From the NCBI GenBank assembly GCA_018971305.1, contig JAGXBC010000001.1, positions 173,956 to 237,955 of the forward strand: 64,000 nucleotides of DNA, written 5' to 3'. The notes below the pieces were generated by a model. The model did not search any database. It worked only from the letters and a program-made list of their open reading frames with translations, and was not told the DNA's origin. The DNA comes from Patescibacteria group bacterium. GTDB lineage: Bacteria > Patescibacteriota > Minisyncoccia > UBA6257 > 2-01-FULL-56-20. Positions 28,557-35,717 of the stretch are shown one piece after another (the stretch's first letter is position 1; each line of letters starts with the position of its first letter). The translations under genes and the position numbers were made by a program.

Positions 28557-29549
28557 ATGAAACCAATTCTTGTTTCCGGCATCCAGACTTCAGGCCGATT
28601 GCACCTTGGCAATTATTTGGGCGCCTTAAAAAATTTTGTTGACCTGCAAAATTCGGGAAAGTACGATTGTTATTTTTTCTTAGCCGACTTACATTCATTA
28701 ACCGAGGCGTTCAATCCAGAAGATAAACATAAACAAGTCATTGAACTGGCCGCGGATTTTCTGGCTGCCGGCCTGGACCCCAAGAAATCCGTTATCTTCC
28801 AGCAATCGCAGGTCCCGGCGCATACGGAACTCGGATGGATTTTCAATACGATTACGCCATTCGGAGAATTAAACAGGATGACACAGTTTAAAGAGAAATC
28901 CGACGCGCAAAAAGAAAATGCGAATGTCGGGCTTTTAACTTATCCCACTCTGATGGCCGCCGACATTCTTTTATATGACGCCAAATTTGTGCCGGTTGGC
29001 GACGACCAAAAACAGCATTTGGAACTCACGAGAACTATCGCCCGTAAATTCAACGCCAAATTCGGCGAAACTTTCACGGAGCCACAACCACTATTTACAG
29101 CAGCCACTCGGGTGATGAACCTTGGCGAACCGGAGCGAAAAATGTCCAAGTCGCGCTCGCATCCACAAAACGTGATTTTCGTTGACGACTCGCCGGAAGA
29201 AATTTCCGCCAAAATAAAATCCGCCGTAACAGACTCCGGCTCGGAGGTTAAGTACGACATCAAAAACAAACCCGCAATAAGCAACTTGCTTACTATCTAT
29301 TCCGCCCTAAGCGGAGAAGCCATCCCTAAACTGGAGAAATATTTCACAGGGAAAAAGTATTCAGAGTTCAAAGTTAAGCTTGCAGAGCTGATATCCGATT
29401 ACTTCGCGGATTACCGCAAGAAGAAAAAGTTATTACTCGCCAAACCGCAGACACTTATAACAACGCTCAAATCCGGTTCAGCCAAAGCGGCAAAAGTTGC
29501 CGACAAAAAGATACACGAAGTTAAAAAAATAATAGGATTGGCGATTTAA
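28557..29549 (+). CDS. trpS: Tryptophanyl-tRNA synthetase
   Basis: SGIQTSGRLHLGNYLGA (HIGH region) and KMSKS at ERKMSKSRS. 330 aa. Confidence 0.9.
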   Translation: MKPILVSGIQTSGRLHLGNYLGALKNFVDLQNSGKYDCYFFLADLHSLTEAFNPEDKHKQVIELAADFLAAGLDPKKSVIFQQSQVPAHTELGWIFNTITPFGELNRMTQFKEKSDAQKENANVGLLTYPTLMAADILLYDAKFVPVGDDQKQHLELTRTIARKFNAKFGETFTEPQPLFTAATRVMNLGEPERKMSKSRSHPQNVIFVDDSPEEISAKIKSAVTDSGSEVKYDIKNKPAISNLLTIYSALSGEAIPKLEKYFTGKKYSEFKVKLAELISDYFADYRKKKKLLLAKPQTLITTLKSGSAKAAKVADKKIHEVKKIIGLAI

Positions 29550-32500
29550 ATCTTCCTTACAGCCAACCAGGAATCCGCGCCGTTAACCTTCGTTTCCGCC
29601 TCCGCTTCAAATTTTTCCGATTTTTTATATTCTATCGCTTCGGCTCCGACCTCAACTTTCAAAACTTTTTCGTACTTGTAGATTGCGAGACGCACTTCCG
29701 CCGGCAACTGGGCCATCAATATCATTTTATCCTTCGGCTTAAGCCCGGATTTTTGCCGCAGCTCCTGAACGGCCCTTATTATCTCCCGCAATATACCCTC
29801 TTCGCGCAGTTCCGGCGTGACAACGGTATCCAGTTCAATTTCTTCCTTAAATCTGGCACTGAAAACAACTTTCTTAATATTCACCTCTTCTGCTAAAATA
29901 CCAAGCAATTCTTTGGGAATCTTCAGCTTTCCGGTTTTAACCCTGAGTTCACCGAGAGGCTGACGGACTTTTATTCCCGCCTCCGCCCGCTTGGCCAATC
30001 CCAAACTAGCCAAACGCCTCACTTCGGCCATTCCTTCCAGTAATTTAGAATTTTGAGTTTTTAATTTTGGTTTTGTCTCCGGCCAATCTTCCAAATGAAC
30101 TGATTCCTGCGTTCCGTTAAGTTCTCCGTAAAGTAATTCCGAAAAGAATGGTGCGAAGGGAGCTGTTAGTTTCGCCGTTTCACGCAGAACCAAGCCGAGT
30201 GTGGCGCAAGCCGAATCAAAATCCTTGGCGCTCTCCGGTTTTTGCAAGCGCCGGCGCGAACGGCGGATATACCAGCGCGACAGATCGTCAACCAACTTCT
30301 CTATAACAAGCGCGGCTTCTCTTATTTCGTATTTATCCAGGTGCTTTGTGGTATCGGCAACAGTTTCTCCGAGCCGAGACAGAATCCATTTGTCCAGAAC
30401 ATTGGTCGAGGATGGAATTTTATCTCCCGAACTTTTCTCGCTCGCATATGTTTTATAAAATACCAAACTGTTCCAAAGAAGCATGTGCATCCTGCGGTAT
30501 GTTTTCGAAATCTCGTTCTCGTCAAAATTTTTTGTCTCGCCCGGAGGATTCACGGTATAGAAATACCAGCGGACGGCATCAACTCCGTATTTATTGATAA
30601 CCTCCCAGGGGTCAACTATATTCCCTTTGGACTTGGACATTTTCTGCCCGTGCTTATCGTTTATCAGCCCCAAAGAAACAACGTTCTTATATGGCGCCGG
30701 GTATCCCAAAGATGTAGCAACTGCAAGCAGGGTGTAAAACCATCCTCGCGTCTGATCCATTGCCTCCGAAATATAATCTGCCGGATAAGCGCGGCTTTTG
30801 TCTATAGCATCCTCATTCTCAAAAGGATAATGCTGCTGAGCGAAAGGCATTGAGCCGGAATCAAACCAGACGTCAGCTACTTCTTTGACCCGTCCTGTTC
30901 TCGCGCCGCATTGCGGGCAGGCAATATGGATACCATCGGCATATGGCTTGTGCAGGTCTATAACTCCAGTACCATCACGGGGCACTATCTTTAGAGTTAA
31001 CTCTCTTGTTTCAGCTACGCCGATAAAATCCTGGCCACGGCTTATTTTTTCCCGTATAGCGCGTTTTTCATCCCATGCTTCCGCCGCGTGCGTAAGCATC
31101 CAGATCGGATACTCATGGCTCACGAGCAGGATATTCTTGCCGCGGTATTTTTTTTCCAATTCCTGCAAAATTTCCCAAACCCGACTGCGCAAATCGCGCA
31201 GGGACTCGCCTCCTTCCGGCTTGCCCTCAAACTTTGATTCGTATGTGGGAAAAAGCTTATGGTAGCGGCTATCACGGCCCCCCTGAAGCATTGAACCCAA
31301 ATCTACCTCGCGCAGACGTTTGTCGAAAACTACTTTTTTGACGCCCAATGCCTCCGCCGCAATCTCGGCTGTTTCTTTTGTCCGGATTATGTCCGAAGAA
31401 ACGATGACGTCTATTTTTTTTCTGCTGCTTTTTAGTTTCTGCAAAAAATTTTTCGCCGACTTTTCCGCGAGCGAGCGGCCGATAACGGTCAAAGTGTTGT
31501 CTTTAGACCAACCGGAATCAATAAAGTGTTCGGCGTTGCTTTTCGCCTCTCCGTGCCGCATAACCCAATAATTATTCCTGGAACCTCCGGCAAGCTTACT
31601 GAGCTCGTCAATGCCTCCCGCCACTTCGCAGTGATTGCATTTTTTGCATTCCCAGATCGGTAACGGCGTTCCCCAGAACCGTTCACGGGAAAAATTCCAA
31701 TCTTTAACCTCACGCAGCCATTCGCCGAAACGCCCCTGTTTTACGTATTCCGGCGTCCAATTGATTTTATTGTTATTGGCTATAAGCTGCTTCCTTAAAC
31801 CGCTCATGGCTACGAACCAGGAATTTCTTGCGTAATATAGAATTGGCGTGCCGCACCGCCAGCAGTAGGGATAATCATGCTTGTAGGGAAGAACTTTCAG
31901 GAGCGAACCGCGCTGTTTTAAATGTTCAACGATGCCAGCCTCGGTTTCCTTGGACTTCGCGAACAGGCCGGAGAAACCAGAAACGTCCTTAGTGAACTTC
32001 CCAACTTCATCAACCGTGTGATACCTCGGTAAGCCGACTTTAAGTCCCAGCTGATAGTCATCTTCGCCGTACATAACCGCAGTGTGGACTACCCCGGTTC
32101 CCTCTGTCGTATTAACAAAATCGGCGTCGTAAACCTTGTACGAACTTGGCGAACGCAATGCCGGAATTTCAAAAAGCGGCTCGTAGCTCAGGCCGATAAG
32201 TTCGTTCCCCTCAAAAATCTCCCTCAGGTCGGGGGCGGAACCAAAAATAGCGGGATTATTCTTAACGGCTTCCTCAGCTACAATCCAACGCTCTATTTTC
32301 CCGTCAATCATCTTCTTCAGTACGGCGTATTTGATGTTTTTACCAACGGCCAAAGCCACATTTCCTGGGAGCGTCCACGGCGTAGTCGTCCAGGATAAAA
32401 CATACGTATCATCTCCCGCCGAGAAATATCCGCCGATTTTCTGCCCCCTCTTCAATTTGAATTTTATATAAACGGAGTCATCAGTAGTTTCTTTGTAACC

Positions 32501-33076
32501 CAAAGCAAGCTCGTGCGAAGAAAGCGACGTGCCGCAGCGCACGCACCAGGGAACTACCTTATGTCCCTTATAAAGAAGTTTTTTTGTCCAAAAGCGCTTT
32601 ATTATCCACCAAAGAGTTTCTATGTAGGAGCTTTCGTAAGTTATGTAAGGGTCTTTCAGGTCCAGCCAAAAGCCCATCCGTTTTGTGAGGCGCTCCCATT
32701 CGTCTTTGTATTCCCAGACGGACTCGCGGCATTTTTTATTGAAGGCCTCAACGCCGTAGTTTTCAATGTCCTTTTTCGTTTTCAGGCCCAATTGTTTTTC
32801 CACCCCTATCTCCACGGGCAATCCGTGCGTGTCCCAGCCGCCTTTTCTCGGAACCAAATAGCCCCGCATCGCCTTGTAGCGTGGGATTATGTCTTTGAAG
32901 GCACGAGCCAGAATATGGTGCACGCCCGGCCTGCCGTTAGCAGTTGGCGGACCCTCGTAAAATATGAACTTTTTAGCGCCTTTCCGCTTAGCGAGAGTTT
33001 TTGCAAAAATGTCGCTTTCGTTCCAAAATTTCAAAACTTTTTCCTCCTCCTTGGGAAGATTGAATTCTTCGGGCAT
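29546..33076 (-). CDS. ileS: Isoleucyl-tRNA synthetase (type 2) carrying an internal histidine-phosphatase-family domain insertion of about 200 aa (residues about 502-705)
   Basis: The HIGH-region PPTANGRPGVHH, CP1 editing domain and DVWFDSGSMPFAQ / KMSKS region are present. RHGE...RTKET...SHE phosphatase motifs sit between CKKCNHC and IACPQCG. Confidence 0.9.
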   Translation of the reverse strand: MPEEFNLPKEEEKVLKFWNESDIFAKTLAKRKGAKKFIFYEGPPTANGRPGVHHILARAFKDIIPRYKAMRGYLVPRKGGWDTHGLPVEIGVEKQLGLKTKKDIENYGVEAFNKKCRESVWEYKDEWERLTKRMGFWLDLKDPYITYESSYIETLWWIIKRFWTKKLLYKGHKVVPWCVRCGTSLSSHELALGYKETTDDSVYIKFKLKRGQKIGGYFSAGDDTYVLSWTTTPWTLPGNVALAVGKNIKYAVLKKMIDGKIERWIVAEEAVKNNPAIFGSAPDLREIFEGNELIGLSYEPLFEIPALRSPSSYKVYDADFVNTTEGTGVVHTAVMYGEDDYQLGLKVGLPRYHTVDEVGKFTKDVSGFSGLFAKSKETEAGIVEHLKQRGSLLKVLPYKHDYPYCWRCGTPILYYARNSWFVAMSGLRKQLIANNNKINWTPEYVKQGRFGEWLREVKDWNFSRERFWGTPLPIWECKKCNHCEVAGGIDELSKLAGGSRNNYWVMRHGEAKSNAEHFIDSGWSKDNTLTVIGRSLAEKSAKNFLQKLKSSRKKIDVIVSSDIIRTKETAEIAAEALGVKKVVFDKRLREVDLGSMLQGGRDSRYHKLFPTYESKFEGKPEGGESLRDLRSRVWEILQELEKKYRGKNILLVSHEYPIWMLTHAAEAWDEKRAIREKISRGQDFIGVAETRELTLKIVPRDGTGVIDLHKPYADGIHIACPQCGARTGRVKEVADVWFDSGSMPFAQQHYPFENEDAIDKSRAYPADYISEAMDQTRGWFYTLLAVATSLGYPAPYKNVVSLGLINDKHGQKMSKSKGNIVDPWEVINKYGVDAVRWYFYTVNPPGETKNFDENEISKTYRRMHMLLWNSLVFYKTYASEKSSGDKIPSSTNVLDKWILSRLGETVADTTKHLDKYEIREAALVIEKLVDDLSRWYIRRSRRRLQKPESAKDFDSACATLGLVLRETAKLTAPFAPFFSELLYGELNGTQESVHLEDWPETKPKLKTQNSKLLEGMAEVRRLASLGLAKRAEAGIKVRQPLGELRVKTGKLKIPKELLGILAEEVNIKKVVFSARFKEEIELDTVVTPELREEGILREIIRAVQELRQKSGLKPKDKMILMAQLPAEVRLAIYKYEKVLKVEVGAEAIEYKKSEKFEAEAETKVNGADSWLAVRKI

Positions 33077-33103
33077 AGATTAAAAATATCACGTTATTCG
33101 TAT

Positions 33104-34072
33104 CTATTCAAAAAATCTGCTGCGTATTTTATGGGTATTGCCATGGCTCAAAAGTCCAAGATAAGCGTTAATCGTCGCTGGCGCTGGGTTGGCTATTACC
33201 ATCTTTAACATTCTTCTTCTCGTCGTTGTCCGAAAAACACGGTGATCAGGAAAATTTATCCACCCCAAAAAATCAACTCCGGACGCAATGGTATTTATGA
33301 AAATTTTATTTGGATGAAGCGTAAGTCGCAATTTATTTTCCAAAAATTCTTTTATTTTTGGAACTAGAGATTCCAGCAATCCGCGGTTCTCCGAGAAAAT
33401 AACGAAGTCGTCCGCATAACGTATATAGTGCCTTGTTTTCAGTTTGTGCTTCACAAACTGGTCAAACTCGTTCATATAAACATTTACAAAGAGTTGTGAA
33501 GTGAGGTTGCCGAGCGGTAAACCTTGTCCAGGCGCGCTTGATGAAAAACTCTCGATAACTCTTTCCAGGAGCCGCAGCGTATCAGCGTCTGGGATATATG
33601 AACGTAGAATATCAAGGAGGACGGCGTGGTCGATGTTGGCAAAAAACTTTTGAATGTCACACCTGAGAACCCAGGAGGTACGCGTATTGTTCTTACTAAT
33701 AATGCGGGCGAACGCGCGAAAACGATTCATTGCGGCATGCGTTCCTTTTCCGACTCGGCATGAGAACGAATCAGCTATGAAAGTTTTATCGAAGAACGGA
33801 TAGAGCACCCGGTAGATGGCGTGATGGAGTAAGCGGTCGCGGACGGTTGCCTTGTGGATATTCCGCGGTTTCGGGTCGCAGATGTTGAATGCTTGATACC
33901 CACCGTGTCGGTACGCACCGTTCAAAATATCCGCGCGAAGTGATAGAATGTTATCCATAAGGCGCGATTGGAACTCCTGCACATCACGTTTCCCGCTCTT
34001 GCCGCGCAAAAATTCCCTCCAGGCCTCAAGCAGGTTTTCCACGCTTATGATTTCCTCAAATTTATGAACCAT
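33104..34072 (-). CDS. DGR-type reverse transcriptase
   Basis: The RT domain carries YADD (YIRYADDFVIF). Motif 4 reads LPLGNLTSQLF, the [I/L]GxxxSQ signature of DGR RTs, rather than the QGxxxSP of group II introns. It is about 322 aa from Met 34072, with no maturase or endonuclease domains. The ORF-track extension to 34264 is antisense to avd. Confidence 0.8.
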   Translation of the reverse strand: MVHKFEEIISVENLLEAWREFLRGKSGKRDVQEFQSRLMDNILSLRADILNGAYRHGGYQAFNICDPKPRNIHKATVRDRLLHHAIYRVLYPFFDKTFIADSFSCRVGKGTHAAMNRFRAFARIISKNNTRTSWVLRCDIQKFFANIDHAVLLDILRSYIPDADTLRLLERVIESFSSSAPGQGLPLGNLTSQLFVNVYMNEFDQFVKHKLKTRHYIRYADDFVIFSENRGLLESLVPKIKEFLENKLRLTLHPNKIFINTIASGVDFLGWINFPDHRVFRTTTRRRMLKMVIANPAPATINAYLGLLSHGNTHKIRSRFFE

Positions 34073-34460
34073 CTTAATTTTCACAATAAAAATTTTCAAG
34101 TAACTCCCCCCCCCCCGACACATCACGCTTCCTATCATCCAACACCTGGTAGCGGCGTACAAAACCTGGCATGAATTTCTGCCGCATGTACCCAAGGATG
34201 CGAGATACTCGTTAGGAACTAAGGTCGACGCTTCGTTTATAGAAACGATTGAAGCGGTATTCACCGCAAGCTATCTCAGTAGAGAGAGTAAACTTCCTTA
34301 TCTCGAAAAAGCTGCCGCGAAACTGGACATGGTTAAATTCTTTCTCCAGATAATCTGGGAAGTCAAGGCGCTCGACAATAAAAAATATATTACACTCTCG
34401 GAAAAGCTGGATGAAATAGGCAGAATGCTCGGCGGATGGCTTAGGAAAATGTCTACTTAA
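34064..34460 (+). CDS. avd: Avd-like accessory variability determinant (four-helix-bundle / 23S-rRNA-IVS family). Frame is interrupted at a C11 tract (34106-34116).
   Basis: The downstream frame encodes HITLPIIQHLVAAYKTWHEFLPHVPKDARYSLGTKV...LDEIGRMLGGWLRKMST*, whose C-terminal EIGRMLGGWL matches the Avd EVGRILGSWI motif. The only upstream ATG (34064) is in a different frame. C10 or C13 would fuse them into a 132-aa protein. Confidence 0.6.
34106..34116. repeat. Poly(C)11 homopolymer tract at the 5' end of avd
   Basis: Eleven consecutive C residues counted directly. The tract lies between the ATG at 34064 and the conserved Avd coding frame. Confidence 0.9.
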
Positions 34461-34505
34461 ACCATTCCGCCGGACATCGCCCGTTGTTTTCATTTGCTGC
34501 CAATT

Positions 34506-34624
34506 ACTCGCGACGCGACCGTTGCGATTGAAGTCGTTGTCAAGCCAGTTCCAGTTCAGGTACCAGCGCTCGCCGTTCTGATTGAGGTAGGGAACGTTCC
34601 GGTTGCCGTTCGCGTTCAGCACGA
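34506..34624 (-). repeat. DGR template repeat (TR), about 119 bp
   Basis: Near-identical copy of 34966-35084. It is Asn-codon (AAC) rich on the minus strand (...NANGNRNVPYLNQNGERWYLNWNWLDNDFNRNGRVAS). Confidence 0.8.
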
Positions 34625-34886
34625 ATGTGCGCAAGGCCGTCCGGGCCACCATCCTTCGAGTCACAAACAAAAACCATACTCTCGGGATTGTATCGTATTC
34701 GGAATTTTGAATTCCTTAGCCTCGCACACCAAGTAGCAACAATTATGAAGCGATTAACGAATGCACGCTAGGAGAAAACCCGTCCTCCCCCATTCCGGCA
34801 GACGCCATCGCGGAATTCGATGCGCACAACCTTAGCCGTGCGCATAATATCTACTATCCATAAGGATTATATCAAAAAAATTTAAT

Positions 34887-34908
34887 GGGCCCTAACGAAT
34901 TAGGGCCC
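34887..34908 (-). terminator. Perfect 9-bp GC hairpin (gggccctaa-cgaa-ttagggccc) about 55 nt 3' of the VR. Candidate DGR homing cruciform and/or terminator of the target gene.
   Basis: Exact inverted repeat with a 4-nt loop. On the minus strand it is followed by attaaattttttt. Confidence 0.55.
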
Positions 34909-34959
34909 AAGGGTTGAGGGTTCAAGCGACACAAAGGATCTGAGTCACAAGAACCAATG

Positions 34960-35580
34960 CTACTTGCTCGCGACGCGACCGTTGCGATTGAAGCCGCAGT
35001 CAAGCCAGCTCCGGCCCAGGTACCAGCGCTCGCCGTTCCGACTGAGGTAGGGAACGTTCCGGTAGCCGTTCGCGTACAGCACGACCAAACCCGGAAAATC
35101 GATGTAAACTTTTCCGAGAAGGGACATGAATACGGGGAATTCATCCTGGTGCTCAACAAGCCAAACGGCCTGCTGGTAACCCAGGACAAGATTCCGGCGG
35201 GACACGAGCCTGCGCTCGTATTCGCTGCCAACGATAGACTTCTCGTCAGAACGCAACAATGTGCCAAGACGGAGAATAACTTCATCGGTTGGCGAAGAGT
35301 CGGACTCGATTTTTTCGATCTGAGAGAACGCCCTGCGGAGTTCCTCGAGTGTCGGCTGCTTCAGGGCTGGAATCCGAACGGCGACATCTTCCATCGTCTT
35401 CCAGAATTCCAACATCTTGATCTCGGCGTTGCCGAGATAGATGTCACGGACGCCTGAAAGGTTGGTGCCGGTTGAAAGCCATTTTACAAAATCGGGCGTG
35501 CAACCATTCCGCTCAAGCGCATGATCGAATTCTGCGGCTTGGCGAGCAAACATGACGGGTTGAGACTTGTCATTAGGCAT
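34960..35580 (-). CDS. DGR target (variable) protein, 206 aa, with the C-terminal 40 aa encoded by the VR
   Basis: Strong RBS (AAAGGAGGA) upstream. C-terminus ...LYANGYRNVPYLSRNGERWYLGRSWLDCGFNRNGRVASK* aligns with the TR-encoded peptide. No obvious signal peptide. Confidence 0.75.
   Translation of the reverse strand: MPNDKSQPVMFARQAAEFDHALERNGCTPDFVKWLSTGTNLSGVRDIYLGNAEIKMLEFWKTMEDVAVRIPALKQPTLEELRRAFSQIEKIESDSSPTDEVILRLGTLLRSDEKSIVGSEYERRLVSRRNLVLGYQQAVWLVEHQDEFPVFMSLLGKVYIDFPGLVVLYANGYRNVPYLSRNGERWYLGRSWLDCGFNRNGRVASK
34966..35084 (-). repeat. DGR variable repeat (VR) at the 3' end of the target gene
   Basis: 12 mismatches to the TR over 119 bp. Eleven are at plus-strand T positions, which are adenines on the coding (minus) strand. 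Confidence 0.8.
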
Positions 35581-35653
35581 GACATGTCCTCCTTTTCTAT
35601 GCGACGTGTTCCAGATTAGGAACGTGTCGCGATGCCACTGGCTCCCCCGATCA

Positions 35654-35717
35654 AACTGGGTTTTGCCATAGCAGAAAACTATCCGATTGCCTAGAGCTTA
35701 TCGAAAGGCTTTCTGCT
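35654..35717. repeat. 16-bp perfect inverted repeat (tttgccatagcagaaa / tttctgctatggcaaa) with 32-nt spacer in the argS-to-DGR-target intergenic region
   Basis: The arms at 35654-35669 and 35702-35717 are exact reverse complements. The element is located 75-140 nt upstream of the target-gene start and just downstream of the argS stop. Confidence 0.6.

Follow-up and report, generated by a model that had tools for sequence, protein, structure and literature searches.

A conserved slippery repeat in the avd gene of Patescibacteria diversity-generating retroelements is a candidate phase-variable gate on targeted hypermutation

A 64-kb stretch of DNA from a member of the uncultured Patescibacteria (the window, 64,000 nucleotides in full) contains a diversity-generating retroelement (DGR) in which the gene for the accessory protein Avd is broken by a run of 11 cytosines (C11). 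Comparison of the window with other assemblies of the same strain and with related loci indicates that this poly-C run is a conserved feature, not a one-off accident. On balance, we favor the explanation that it is a hypermutable repeat in the 5' coding part of avd, where DNA slipped-strand mispairing would produce phase variation that gates Avd and, with it, diversification of the DGR target gene.

The C11 run separates the Avd domain from its start codon in the window

The Avd frame spans positions 34104-34460 (LPPPRHITLPIIQHL...GGWLRKMST*). On its upstream side it is closed by a TAA codon at 34101-34103, as a first-pass annotation of this DNA had stated, and its earliest in-frame ATG, GTG, or TTG codon is at 34329, in agreement with the earlier claim that the C11 run at 34106-34116 breaks avd and leaves its 5' end without an in-frame start codon. 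The ATG at 34064 had been correctly described as reading through the run in another frame, but the length of 68 codons given for its product did not hold; the open reading frame (ORF) from this ATG is one base out of phase as it crosses the run and ends after 36 codons, at 34174, and a 68-residue product belongs to the ORF that begins at TTG 33968. The similarity to Avd was confirmed by a profile search, in which the frame matched the Pfam family PF22296 (bAvd) with an E-value of 4.1e-15 over profile positions 12-106 of 107. The search for homologs returned 1184 proteins, and PF22296 is annotated in 120 of 120 among the matches listed.

With C10 or C13 at 34106-34116, the upstream ATG and the Avd domain share one frame, so the C11 of the window needs a change of -1. 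The expectation that C10 would give an intact Avd is borne out by an allele found in another assembly; the predicted protein has 131 amino acids. The N terminus of the C10 allele, MNHLNFHNKNFQVTPPPRHITLPIIQ (MNHLNFHNK..TPPPR), aligns with those of homologs such as MAQLNFHNKSSQVSPPPRGVLPVLQ (M.QLNFHNK...PPPR), and the N-terminal extension that precedes the run, MNHLNFHNKNFQVT, matches homolog N termini. In the annotation of the window by the Prokaryotic Genome Annotation Pipeline (PGAP), avd appears as a 112-amino acid protein with an ATC start (MBU6500401.1). The C11 run is the sole homopolymer longer than 9 nt, and the sole run of G or C longer than 7 nt, within the window.

Assemblies of the same strain contain C10

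The record from which the window was taken is a 319,838-nt contig with C11. The corresponding contig of assembly GCA_028865265.1 (JAGWKQ010000001.1, 319,837 nt; locus L001) has C10, and this is its sole difference from the window over 10,969 nt; annotation of the C10 assembly includes an intact avd gene encoding 131 amino acids (MDE2015099.1 and MDE2226527.1). The Logan assemblies of SRR32006849 and SRR32006840 also have C10 and are otherwise identical to the window over 4.1 and 3.2 kb, respectively, including the variable repeat (VR) of the DGR. The run was read as C10 in loci L001, L164, and L165, and the tally for this strain is C11 in one record and C10 in four other assemblies (3.2-11 kb compared). 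A Logan contig from SRR32006850 (L083) ends 19 nt before the run, and an exact-pattern scan of Joint Genome Institute metagenome contigs, using the flanks of the window's run with a variable gap, gave no match. The 112-amino acid PGAP product had no entry in the contig index.

From these consensus sequences, we read C10 as the ON length and the majority call of the strain and C11 as the OFF length and the minority call. The window most likely contains either the OFF allele of a strain whose populations vary in run length or a one-base miscall of the ON allele, and the consensus sequences fit both. The first-pass annotation had offered a phase-variable switch or a homopolymer sequencing error as its two proposals; both are live for the window, and the idea of a switch gains strong comparative support from the related loci described below.

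A slippery repeat is found at the same avd codons in related loci

Loci encoding Avd relatives (43-70% identity) were collected from species-representative genomes (80 loci) and from metagenomes (80 loci), and 147 of these could be analyzed; all are from Patescibacteria or from unclassified metagenome-assembled genomes. The evidence base consists of consensus assemblies, and the loci share descent, so their counts are not fully independent; the divergence among the Avd proteins (43-70% identity) and the scattered phases reported below argue against a few inherited states.

At the codons for Pro-Pro-Pro, a run of C8-C14 is present in 120 of the 147 loci (mode 9-10 nt), whereas one locus has C30, four have C7, and 22 have six cytosines or fewer. 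At least eight consecutive cytosines are found at this site in 121 loci (82%). The C30 locus (L135; Ga0209542_10000534, positions ∼2440-2470) is out of frame and far beyond the usual 8-14 nt. Another slippery repeat occupies the same place in 4 of the 22 short-run loci (L094, L141, L149, and L078); the dinucleotide repeats at the avd site are (CA)8 and (CA)18, both in frame, (CA)5, which is out of frame, and (GA)7. Comparison with orthologous DGRs had been put forward in the first-pass annotation as a check on its proposal, and it revealed a slippery repeat of some type at the same avd codons in ∼85% of the 147 related DGRs and, as described below, an in-frame start in every repeat-free locus. 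In two Yanofskybacteria scaffolds (L037 and L061), runs of N directly abut the C run; a scaffold gap and masking by the collection are both possible.

The 735 kb of DNA flanking these loci contain just one C8 and one G12, the latter at a contig end. Because CCC accounts for only 26% of the proline codons elsewhere in Avd, the homopolymer is selected and maintained as DNA and not as a by-product of encoding Pro-Pro-Pro. In addition, the run precedes the first-helix codon of Avd by 12 ± 2.7 nt, and its distance to the start of the reverse transcriptase (RT) gene is 31 ± 12 nt (range 5-110 nt); this tight spacing to the Avd domain and loose spacing to the RT start show that the run belongs to avd.

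These data bear on the possibility that the run has no function, in which case it would be three or four CCC proline codons, the C11 of the window would be a one-base error in one assembly, and avd would be a normal intact gene. The four other assemblies of the strain, with C10 and an intact 131-amino acid Avd, are as this explanation expects; so are the conservation of Pro-Pro-Pro at the protein level in homologs and the one locus, L096, that encodes Pro-Pro-Pro-Pro by mixed codons. It does not account for at least eight consecutive cytosines in 82% of loci when CCC makes up 26% of proline codons, for run lengths that are often not multiples of three, for other repeat types at the same site, or for the out-of-frame consensus assemblies, from many studies and platforms, that make up ∼70% of the 125 run-bearing loci (see below). 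A functionless run is already contradicted for the clade by these comparisons, and we consider it very unlikely overall.

The upstream ATG is out of frame in most run-bearing loci

In all loci with runs of C7 or longer (n = 125), we scored the phase of the ATG from which an upstream frame enters the run, with automatic assignment of the ATG in nine ambiguous loci. This ATG was in frame with the Avd domain in 27 loci, ambiguous in 9, and out of frame in 89. The in-frame share is 23-29% (27-36 of 125), near or slightly below the one-third expected at random, and the two out-of-frame phases are similar in number (43 and 37 among runs of C8 or longer). In the repeat-free loci, the ATG is in frame in 18 of 18 cases (Fisher p = 3e-9), which shows that Avd translation begins at this codon and includes the N-terminal tail. 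Because ∼70% of consensus assemblies from many projects are out of frame, sequencing error cannot explain the pattern. An Illumina poly-G artifact was also ruled out, as the run is internal, sits at a fixed codon position, and is present in assemblies from many projects and years.

A compensating start downstream of the run in the out-of-frame loci was ruled out as well. Start-capable codons after the run show no excess there (31%, versus 42% of in-frame and 23% of short-run loci), and in 61 of the 89 out-of-frame loci, as in the window, there is no ATG, GTG, or TTG between the run and the first helix. Judged from these assembled sequences, the clade data require a slippage-dependent route from the ATG into the Avd frame.

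If avd were instead a decaying pseudogene in an inactive DGR, a broken frame in the window and a VR that is identical across the strain assemblies compared would both be expected. However, the Avd frame is fully open and conserved in the window, and at least 100 Avd codons are open after the run in 88 of the 88 out-of-frame loci that have their stop codon inside the locus, so these are not decaying pseudogenes. The RT gene, the template repeat (TR), and the VR are intact with adenine-specific differences, and the C10 allele is intact. We consider decay of avd highly improbable.

The same counts bear on a role for the run on the opposite strand, where it would serve as a G run within the leader or the promoter of RT or within the TR-containing DGR RNA, with Avd made from a downstream start (such as the ATC chosen by PGAP) and its phase irrelevant. 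Read on the minus strand, the run precedes the RT start (GTG 34084) by 21 nt and falls inside any TR-RT read-through transcript, and the presence of the avd ATG alone proves little because it is the complement of a conserved RT histidine codon. Avd of the Bordetella phage DGR is bound by a noncoding segment that lies downstream of the TR (PMC6182149). Several observations oppose such a role. The spacing of the run has a standard deviation of 2.7 nt when measured to the first Avd helix but 12 nt (range 5-110 nt) when measured to the RT start, and these statistics disfavor an RT-linked element. The in-frame ATG in 18 of 18 repeat-free loci is not expected by chance, start codons between the run and the first helix are missing from 61 of 89 out-of-frame loci and the window and are no commoner than in the in-frame loci, a (CA)n repeat would not mimic a G run, and the region has no Rfam match. 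Based on this evidence, we regard an opposite-strand role as unlikely.

Consensus run length is identical in most strain-level comparisons

Independent assemblies were compared at the strain level in nine sets. Two of these differ in the run alone, with assembly error possible in both: the window and its sister assemblies (C11 and C10), and L021, with an out-of-frame C10, and L095, with an in-frame C9, which are 99.9% identical over 1010 nt with the run as their only difference.

Several observations weigh against phase variation as the explanation. The other seven sets each have an identical consensus run length, OFF lengths included (Table 1). All assemblies of the window's strain that were compared (L001, L164, and L165) have the same VR, including the C10, in-frame ones, and no diversification is visible at the consensus level. 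Within this strain C11 was found once and C10 four times, which makes a one-base assembly miscall possible. From these comparisons, the modal run length of a population is usually stable, OFF lengths included, and a stable OFF consensus fits equally well a stable DNA run combined with slippage by RNA polymerase or the ribosome. A stable consensus is nevertheless compatible with phase variation, because a large, bottleneck-free environmental population would keep its modal length while containing a minority of ON cells.

Table 1. Strain sets with an invariant consensus run length
Set	Run	Phase	Contigs
Giovannonibacteria CP066687	C10	ON	6 read
Jorgensenbacteria	C9	OFF	3 read of 15
Minisyncoccia lineage	C8	OFF	8 read of 19
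Harrisonbacteria	C8	OFF	3 read
Further lineage (P0228 group)	C8	ON	10 read
L006 / L088	C10		2
L071 / L161	C10		2

The same slippery run could act after replication, by stuttering of RNA polymerase or a ribosome shift on CCC-C, to give a constitutive low level of Avd with no ON/OFF switch. A near-random phase across lineages, with the Avd frame always intact, is expected if the exact DNA length is irrelevant, and slippage of this kind explains well a persistent OFF consensus, as the consensus length (out-of-frame lengths included) holds steady across many samples of one strain. With a lower limit of 7-8 nt and a mode of 9-10 nt, the runs come close in length to the RNA-DNA hybrid, and slippage probably needs a run about as long as that hybrid. 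CCC-C is, moreover, a classical +1 shift site for tRNA-Pro. In Mycoplasma, DNA, RNA, and ribosomal slippage are reported to be combined on one repeat (bioRxiv 10.64898/2026.04.01.715767). On the other side, the two off-phases are about equally common, with no single programmed +1 or -1 shift conserved, and in two cases DNA length differs between otherwise identical sequences. In some loci the run is replaced by (CA)n or (GA)n, neither of which is a known substrate for slippage by RNA polymerase or the ribosome, and the best-documented cases of elongation slippage involve A/T runs and not G/C runs. Slippage after replication is the main rival to phase variation, and we give it a minority chance.

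Slippage at the level of DNA is favored because of the DNA length differences, the dinucleotide substitutes, the equal frequency of the two off-phases, and a length spectrum like that of Campylobacter; (CA)n and (GA)n repeats at the same site point in particular to DNA slippage. The run-length spectrum seen here resembles that of the poly-G contingency loci of Campylobacter.

Organization of the DGR and its surroundings

The features of the DGR are listed in Table 2. The order is target gene with VR, TR, avd, and RT; avd occupies the plus strand between TR and RT, and RT, TR, VR, and the target gene are all on the minus strand, an orientation that the first-pass annotation had not given. The RT start at GTG 34084 is backed by homolog N termini (MKIQLxHKFE) and by a 326-amino acid PGAP call (P0243). 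The RT has 7985 homologs at E ≤ 1e-60, and the sampled ones are paired with bAvd. Within the TR/VR core, TR adenines account for 11 of the 12 differences. The lone non-adenine difference is a T to C change (TR 34547, VR 35007), and non-adenine substitutions are frequent in DGRs of the Candidate Phyla Radiation (CPR) (Wu et al. 2018, PMC5758913). A second VR was not found elsewhere in the window, and the target gene has no Pfam match.

Table 2. Features of the DGR in the window
Feature	Position	Strand	Remarks
DGR reverse transcriptase	33104-34084	-	RVT_1, E 1.6e-23; likely start GTG 34084 (MKIKMVHKFEE), alternative ATG 34072
avd start: ATG and N-terminal extension MNHLNFHNKNFQVT	34064-34105	+	One base out of phase with the remaining avd in the window
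Poly-C run, C11	34106-34116	+	Encodes the conserved Pro-Pro-Pro of the Avd N-terminal tail; slippage-prone
Avd four-helix-bundle frame, RHITLPIIQHL...RKMST	34117-34460	+	PF22296; intact; stop TAA 34458-34460
Template repeat (TR)	34498-34624	-	127-nt repeat, 89% identical to VR
Terminator-like hairpin and T-run between target gene and TR	34886-34909	-	Consensus match only
Variable repeat (VR)	34958-35084	-	3' end of target gene
DGR target gene, 206-amino acid ORF	34960-35580	-	VR encodes the C terminus (...NGYRNVPYLSRNGERWYLGRSWLDCGFNRNGRVASK); called as 197 amino acids from 35553 in L001

A head-to-head overlap of 21 nt links the avd ATG (34064) and the RT start, and the two genes diverge from each other, head to head, in all 142 related loci in which the 5' end of RT is present. 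In relatives, the overlap motif ATGnnnCAATTGAATTTTCAT encodes MxQLNFH of Avd on one strand and MKIQLxH of RT on the other, and it is flanked by an inverted repeat (TTATGA...TCATAA). This arrangement forces the promoter of each gene into the body of its neighbor and implies that antisense transcription takes place. As the C run is upstream of the RT start, its length affects avd only and leaves the RT frame untouched. A scan of 33000-35700 against Rfam gave no match at E ≤ 1, and a scan for promoter and terminator consensus sequences gave weak matches only, which decide nothing.

A 152-amino acid ORF (34212-34670, minus strand) spans the TR and is antisense to avd. In Logan contigs, gene callers choose this antisense ORF (as 146 amino acids) and N-terminally extended RT ORFs (355 or 360 amino acids) and skip avd; these antisense and extended calls are probably spurious and caused by the head-to-head overlap. 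More generally, avd is routinely mis-annotated in these genomes, as truncated genes, with non-canonical starts, or with spurious antisense ORFs in its place.

Also in the window, the gene for isoleucyl-tRNA synthetase (29546-33076, minus strand; 1176 amino acids) has a histidine phosphatase domain (PF00300, His_Phos_1) between two tRNA-synt_1 segments, an unusual fusion. In loci L186-L195, the gene downstream of RT encodes a serine recombinase; the start called for it varies among near-identical contigs (441 versus 392 amino acids), and one contig has an indel.

Discussion

In the favored explanation, phase variation of avd, translation would initiate at ATG 34064, within the overlap with the RT start, and the ribosome would cross the run (Pro-Pro-Pro) before reaching the Avd four-helix bundle. 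Slipped-strand mispairing at replication would add or remove one C and thereby put the Avd domain in or out of phase, so that cells would switch stochastically between Avd-ON and Avd-OFF. If Avd is required alongside RT for cDNA synthesis, mutagenic retrohoming of the target gene would be switched on and off with it; the OFF state would freeze a useful VR variant, and the ON state would re-open diversification. In the Bordetella phage DGR, a complex of bRT and Avd was required for cDNA synthesis (PMC6182149). Whether slippage occurs in DNA or in RNA or at the ribosome, the run is predicted to gate how much Avd is produced, and since Avd is needed for cDNA synthesis, this gate should control diversification of the target. 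The anatomy of the element, the C10/C11 difference, the conservation of the repeat across the clade, the near-random phase, and the open frame after the run are shown by the sequences, whereas slippage in DNA, its reversibility, and its effect on diversification are inferred.

For the clade as a whole, we see an even chance that a hypermutable poly-C (or CA/GA) repeat in avd stochastically switches targeted hypermutation, so that populations would hold both "frozen" and "diversifying" cells and the repeat would be a second-order contingency locus. The new aspect would be a hypermutable repeat that gates a hypermutation machine, a combination of known kinds. Continuous mutagenic retrohoming would erase any beneficial variant, hence the question of how DGR activity is restrained. 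According to Wu et al. 2018 (PMC5758913), the DGRs of Patescibacteria are very numerous and highly diverse. If the proposal is correct, these DGRs would own a built-in gate, heritable but reversible, in an essential accessory gene; two classic strategies of localized hypermutation would be linked in a single element; and there would be a general answer to how DGR hosts retain a good variant once it is found. In practical terms, DGR surveys that demand an intact avd gene will under-count such elements or misjudge their activity.

With an RT next to the repeats, an adenine-biased TR/VR pair with the VR in a target gene, and an Avd that is split by C11 and intact with C10, the element is classified from its sequence as a DGR of the TR-(avd)-RT layout, or B3 type. 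This layout is architecture B3 of Wu et al. 2018 (PMC5758913), and the DGRs studied here fall in the Patescibacteria-restricted DGR clade 2 of Roux et al. 2021 (PMC8144416). With these B3 and clade 2 elements they share an RVT_1 RT, bAvd, adenine-specific TR/VR differences, a VR at the C terminus of the target, and an avd gene on the opposite strand between TR and RT. No description of repeats, homopolymers, or broken frames in avd was found in the searchable DGR literature, which included the studies by Wu (2018), Roux (2021), and Paul & Eren (2022) but not Paul et al. 2017 (Nat Microbiol), the principal account of DGRs in Patescibacteria. The avd gene of the Bordetella phage is an ordinary ORF with the orientation of RT.

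Transcriptional slippage is known to rescue frameshifted genes at poly-A runs in insect endosymbionts and is programmed in Thermus dnaX and in insertion sequence (IS) elements. The avd run shares with these cases a long coding homopolymer, a genomic phase that is not conserved while the ORF is kept, and a length near that of the RNA-DNA hybrid; the known cases involve A/T runs, whereas a C/G run, or sometimes a dinucleotide repeat, is found here. A slippery site (a homopolymer of at least 8 nt) is present in 82% of loci, as in programmed frameshifting, but no fixed +1 or -1 offset was found; because all three phases occur and no offset is conserved, this is not a classical programmed frameshift. 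In Bordetella, poly-C tracts act on the fim promoters through promoter spacing, and a C-run frameshift is known in bvgS. A variable-length C run that would change expression stochastically is common to these systems and avd, but in contrast to fim, the run here is inside a coding region, and its position tracks the Avd domain and not a promoter-like site.

The closest comparison is with simple sequence repeat contingency loci, such as the poly-G/C tracts in genes of Campylobacter jejuni, Neisseria, and Haemophilus. As in those loci, a repeat conserved as DNA, here a G/C homopolymer of 8-14 nt, lies near the 5' end of a coding region, and one-unit changes in its length shift the frame of a gene that is otherwise intact; genomes in all three phases are found, and run length appears to differ between otherwise identical sequences in two of the nine strain-level sets. 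The avd repeat differs in being a candidate switch of uncultured Patescibacteria and in being essentially the only such run in the flanking DNA examined, compared with dozens per genome in the known systems. It also differs in what it would gate, which is the accessory factor of a targeted hypermutation system instead of a surface or restriction-modification gene, so that one mutable site would control another.

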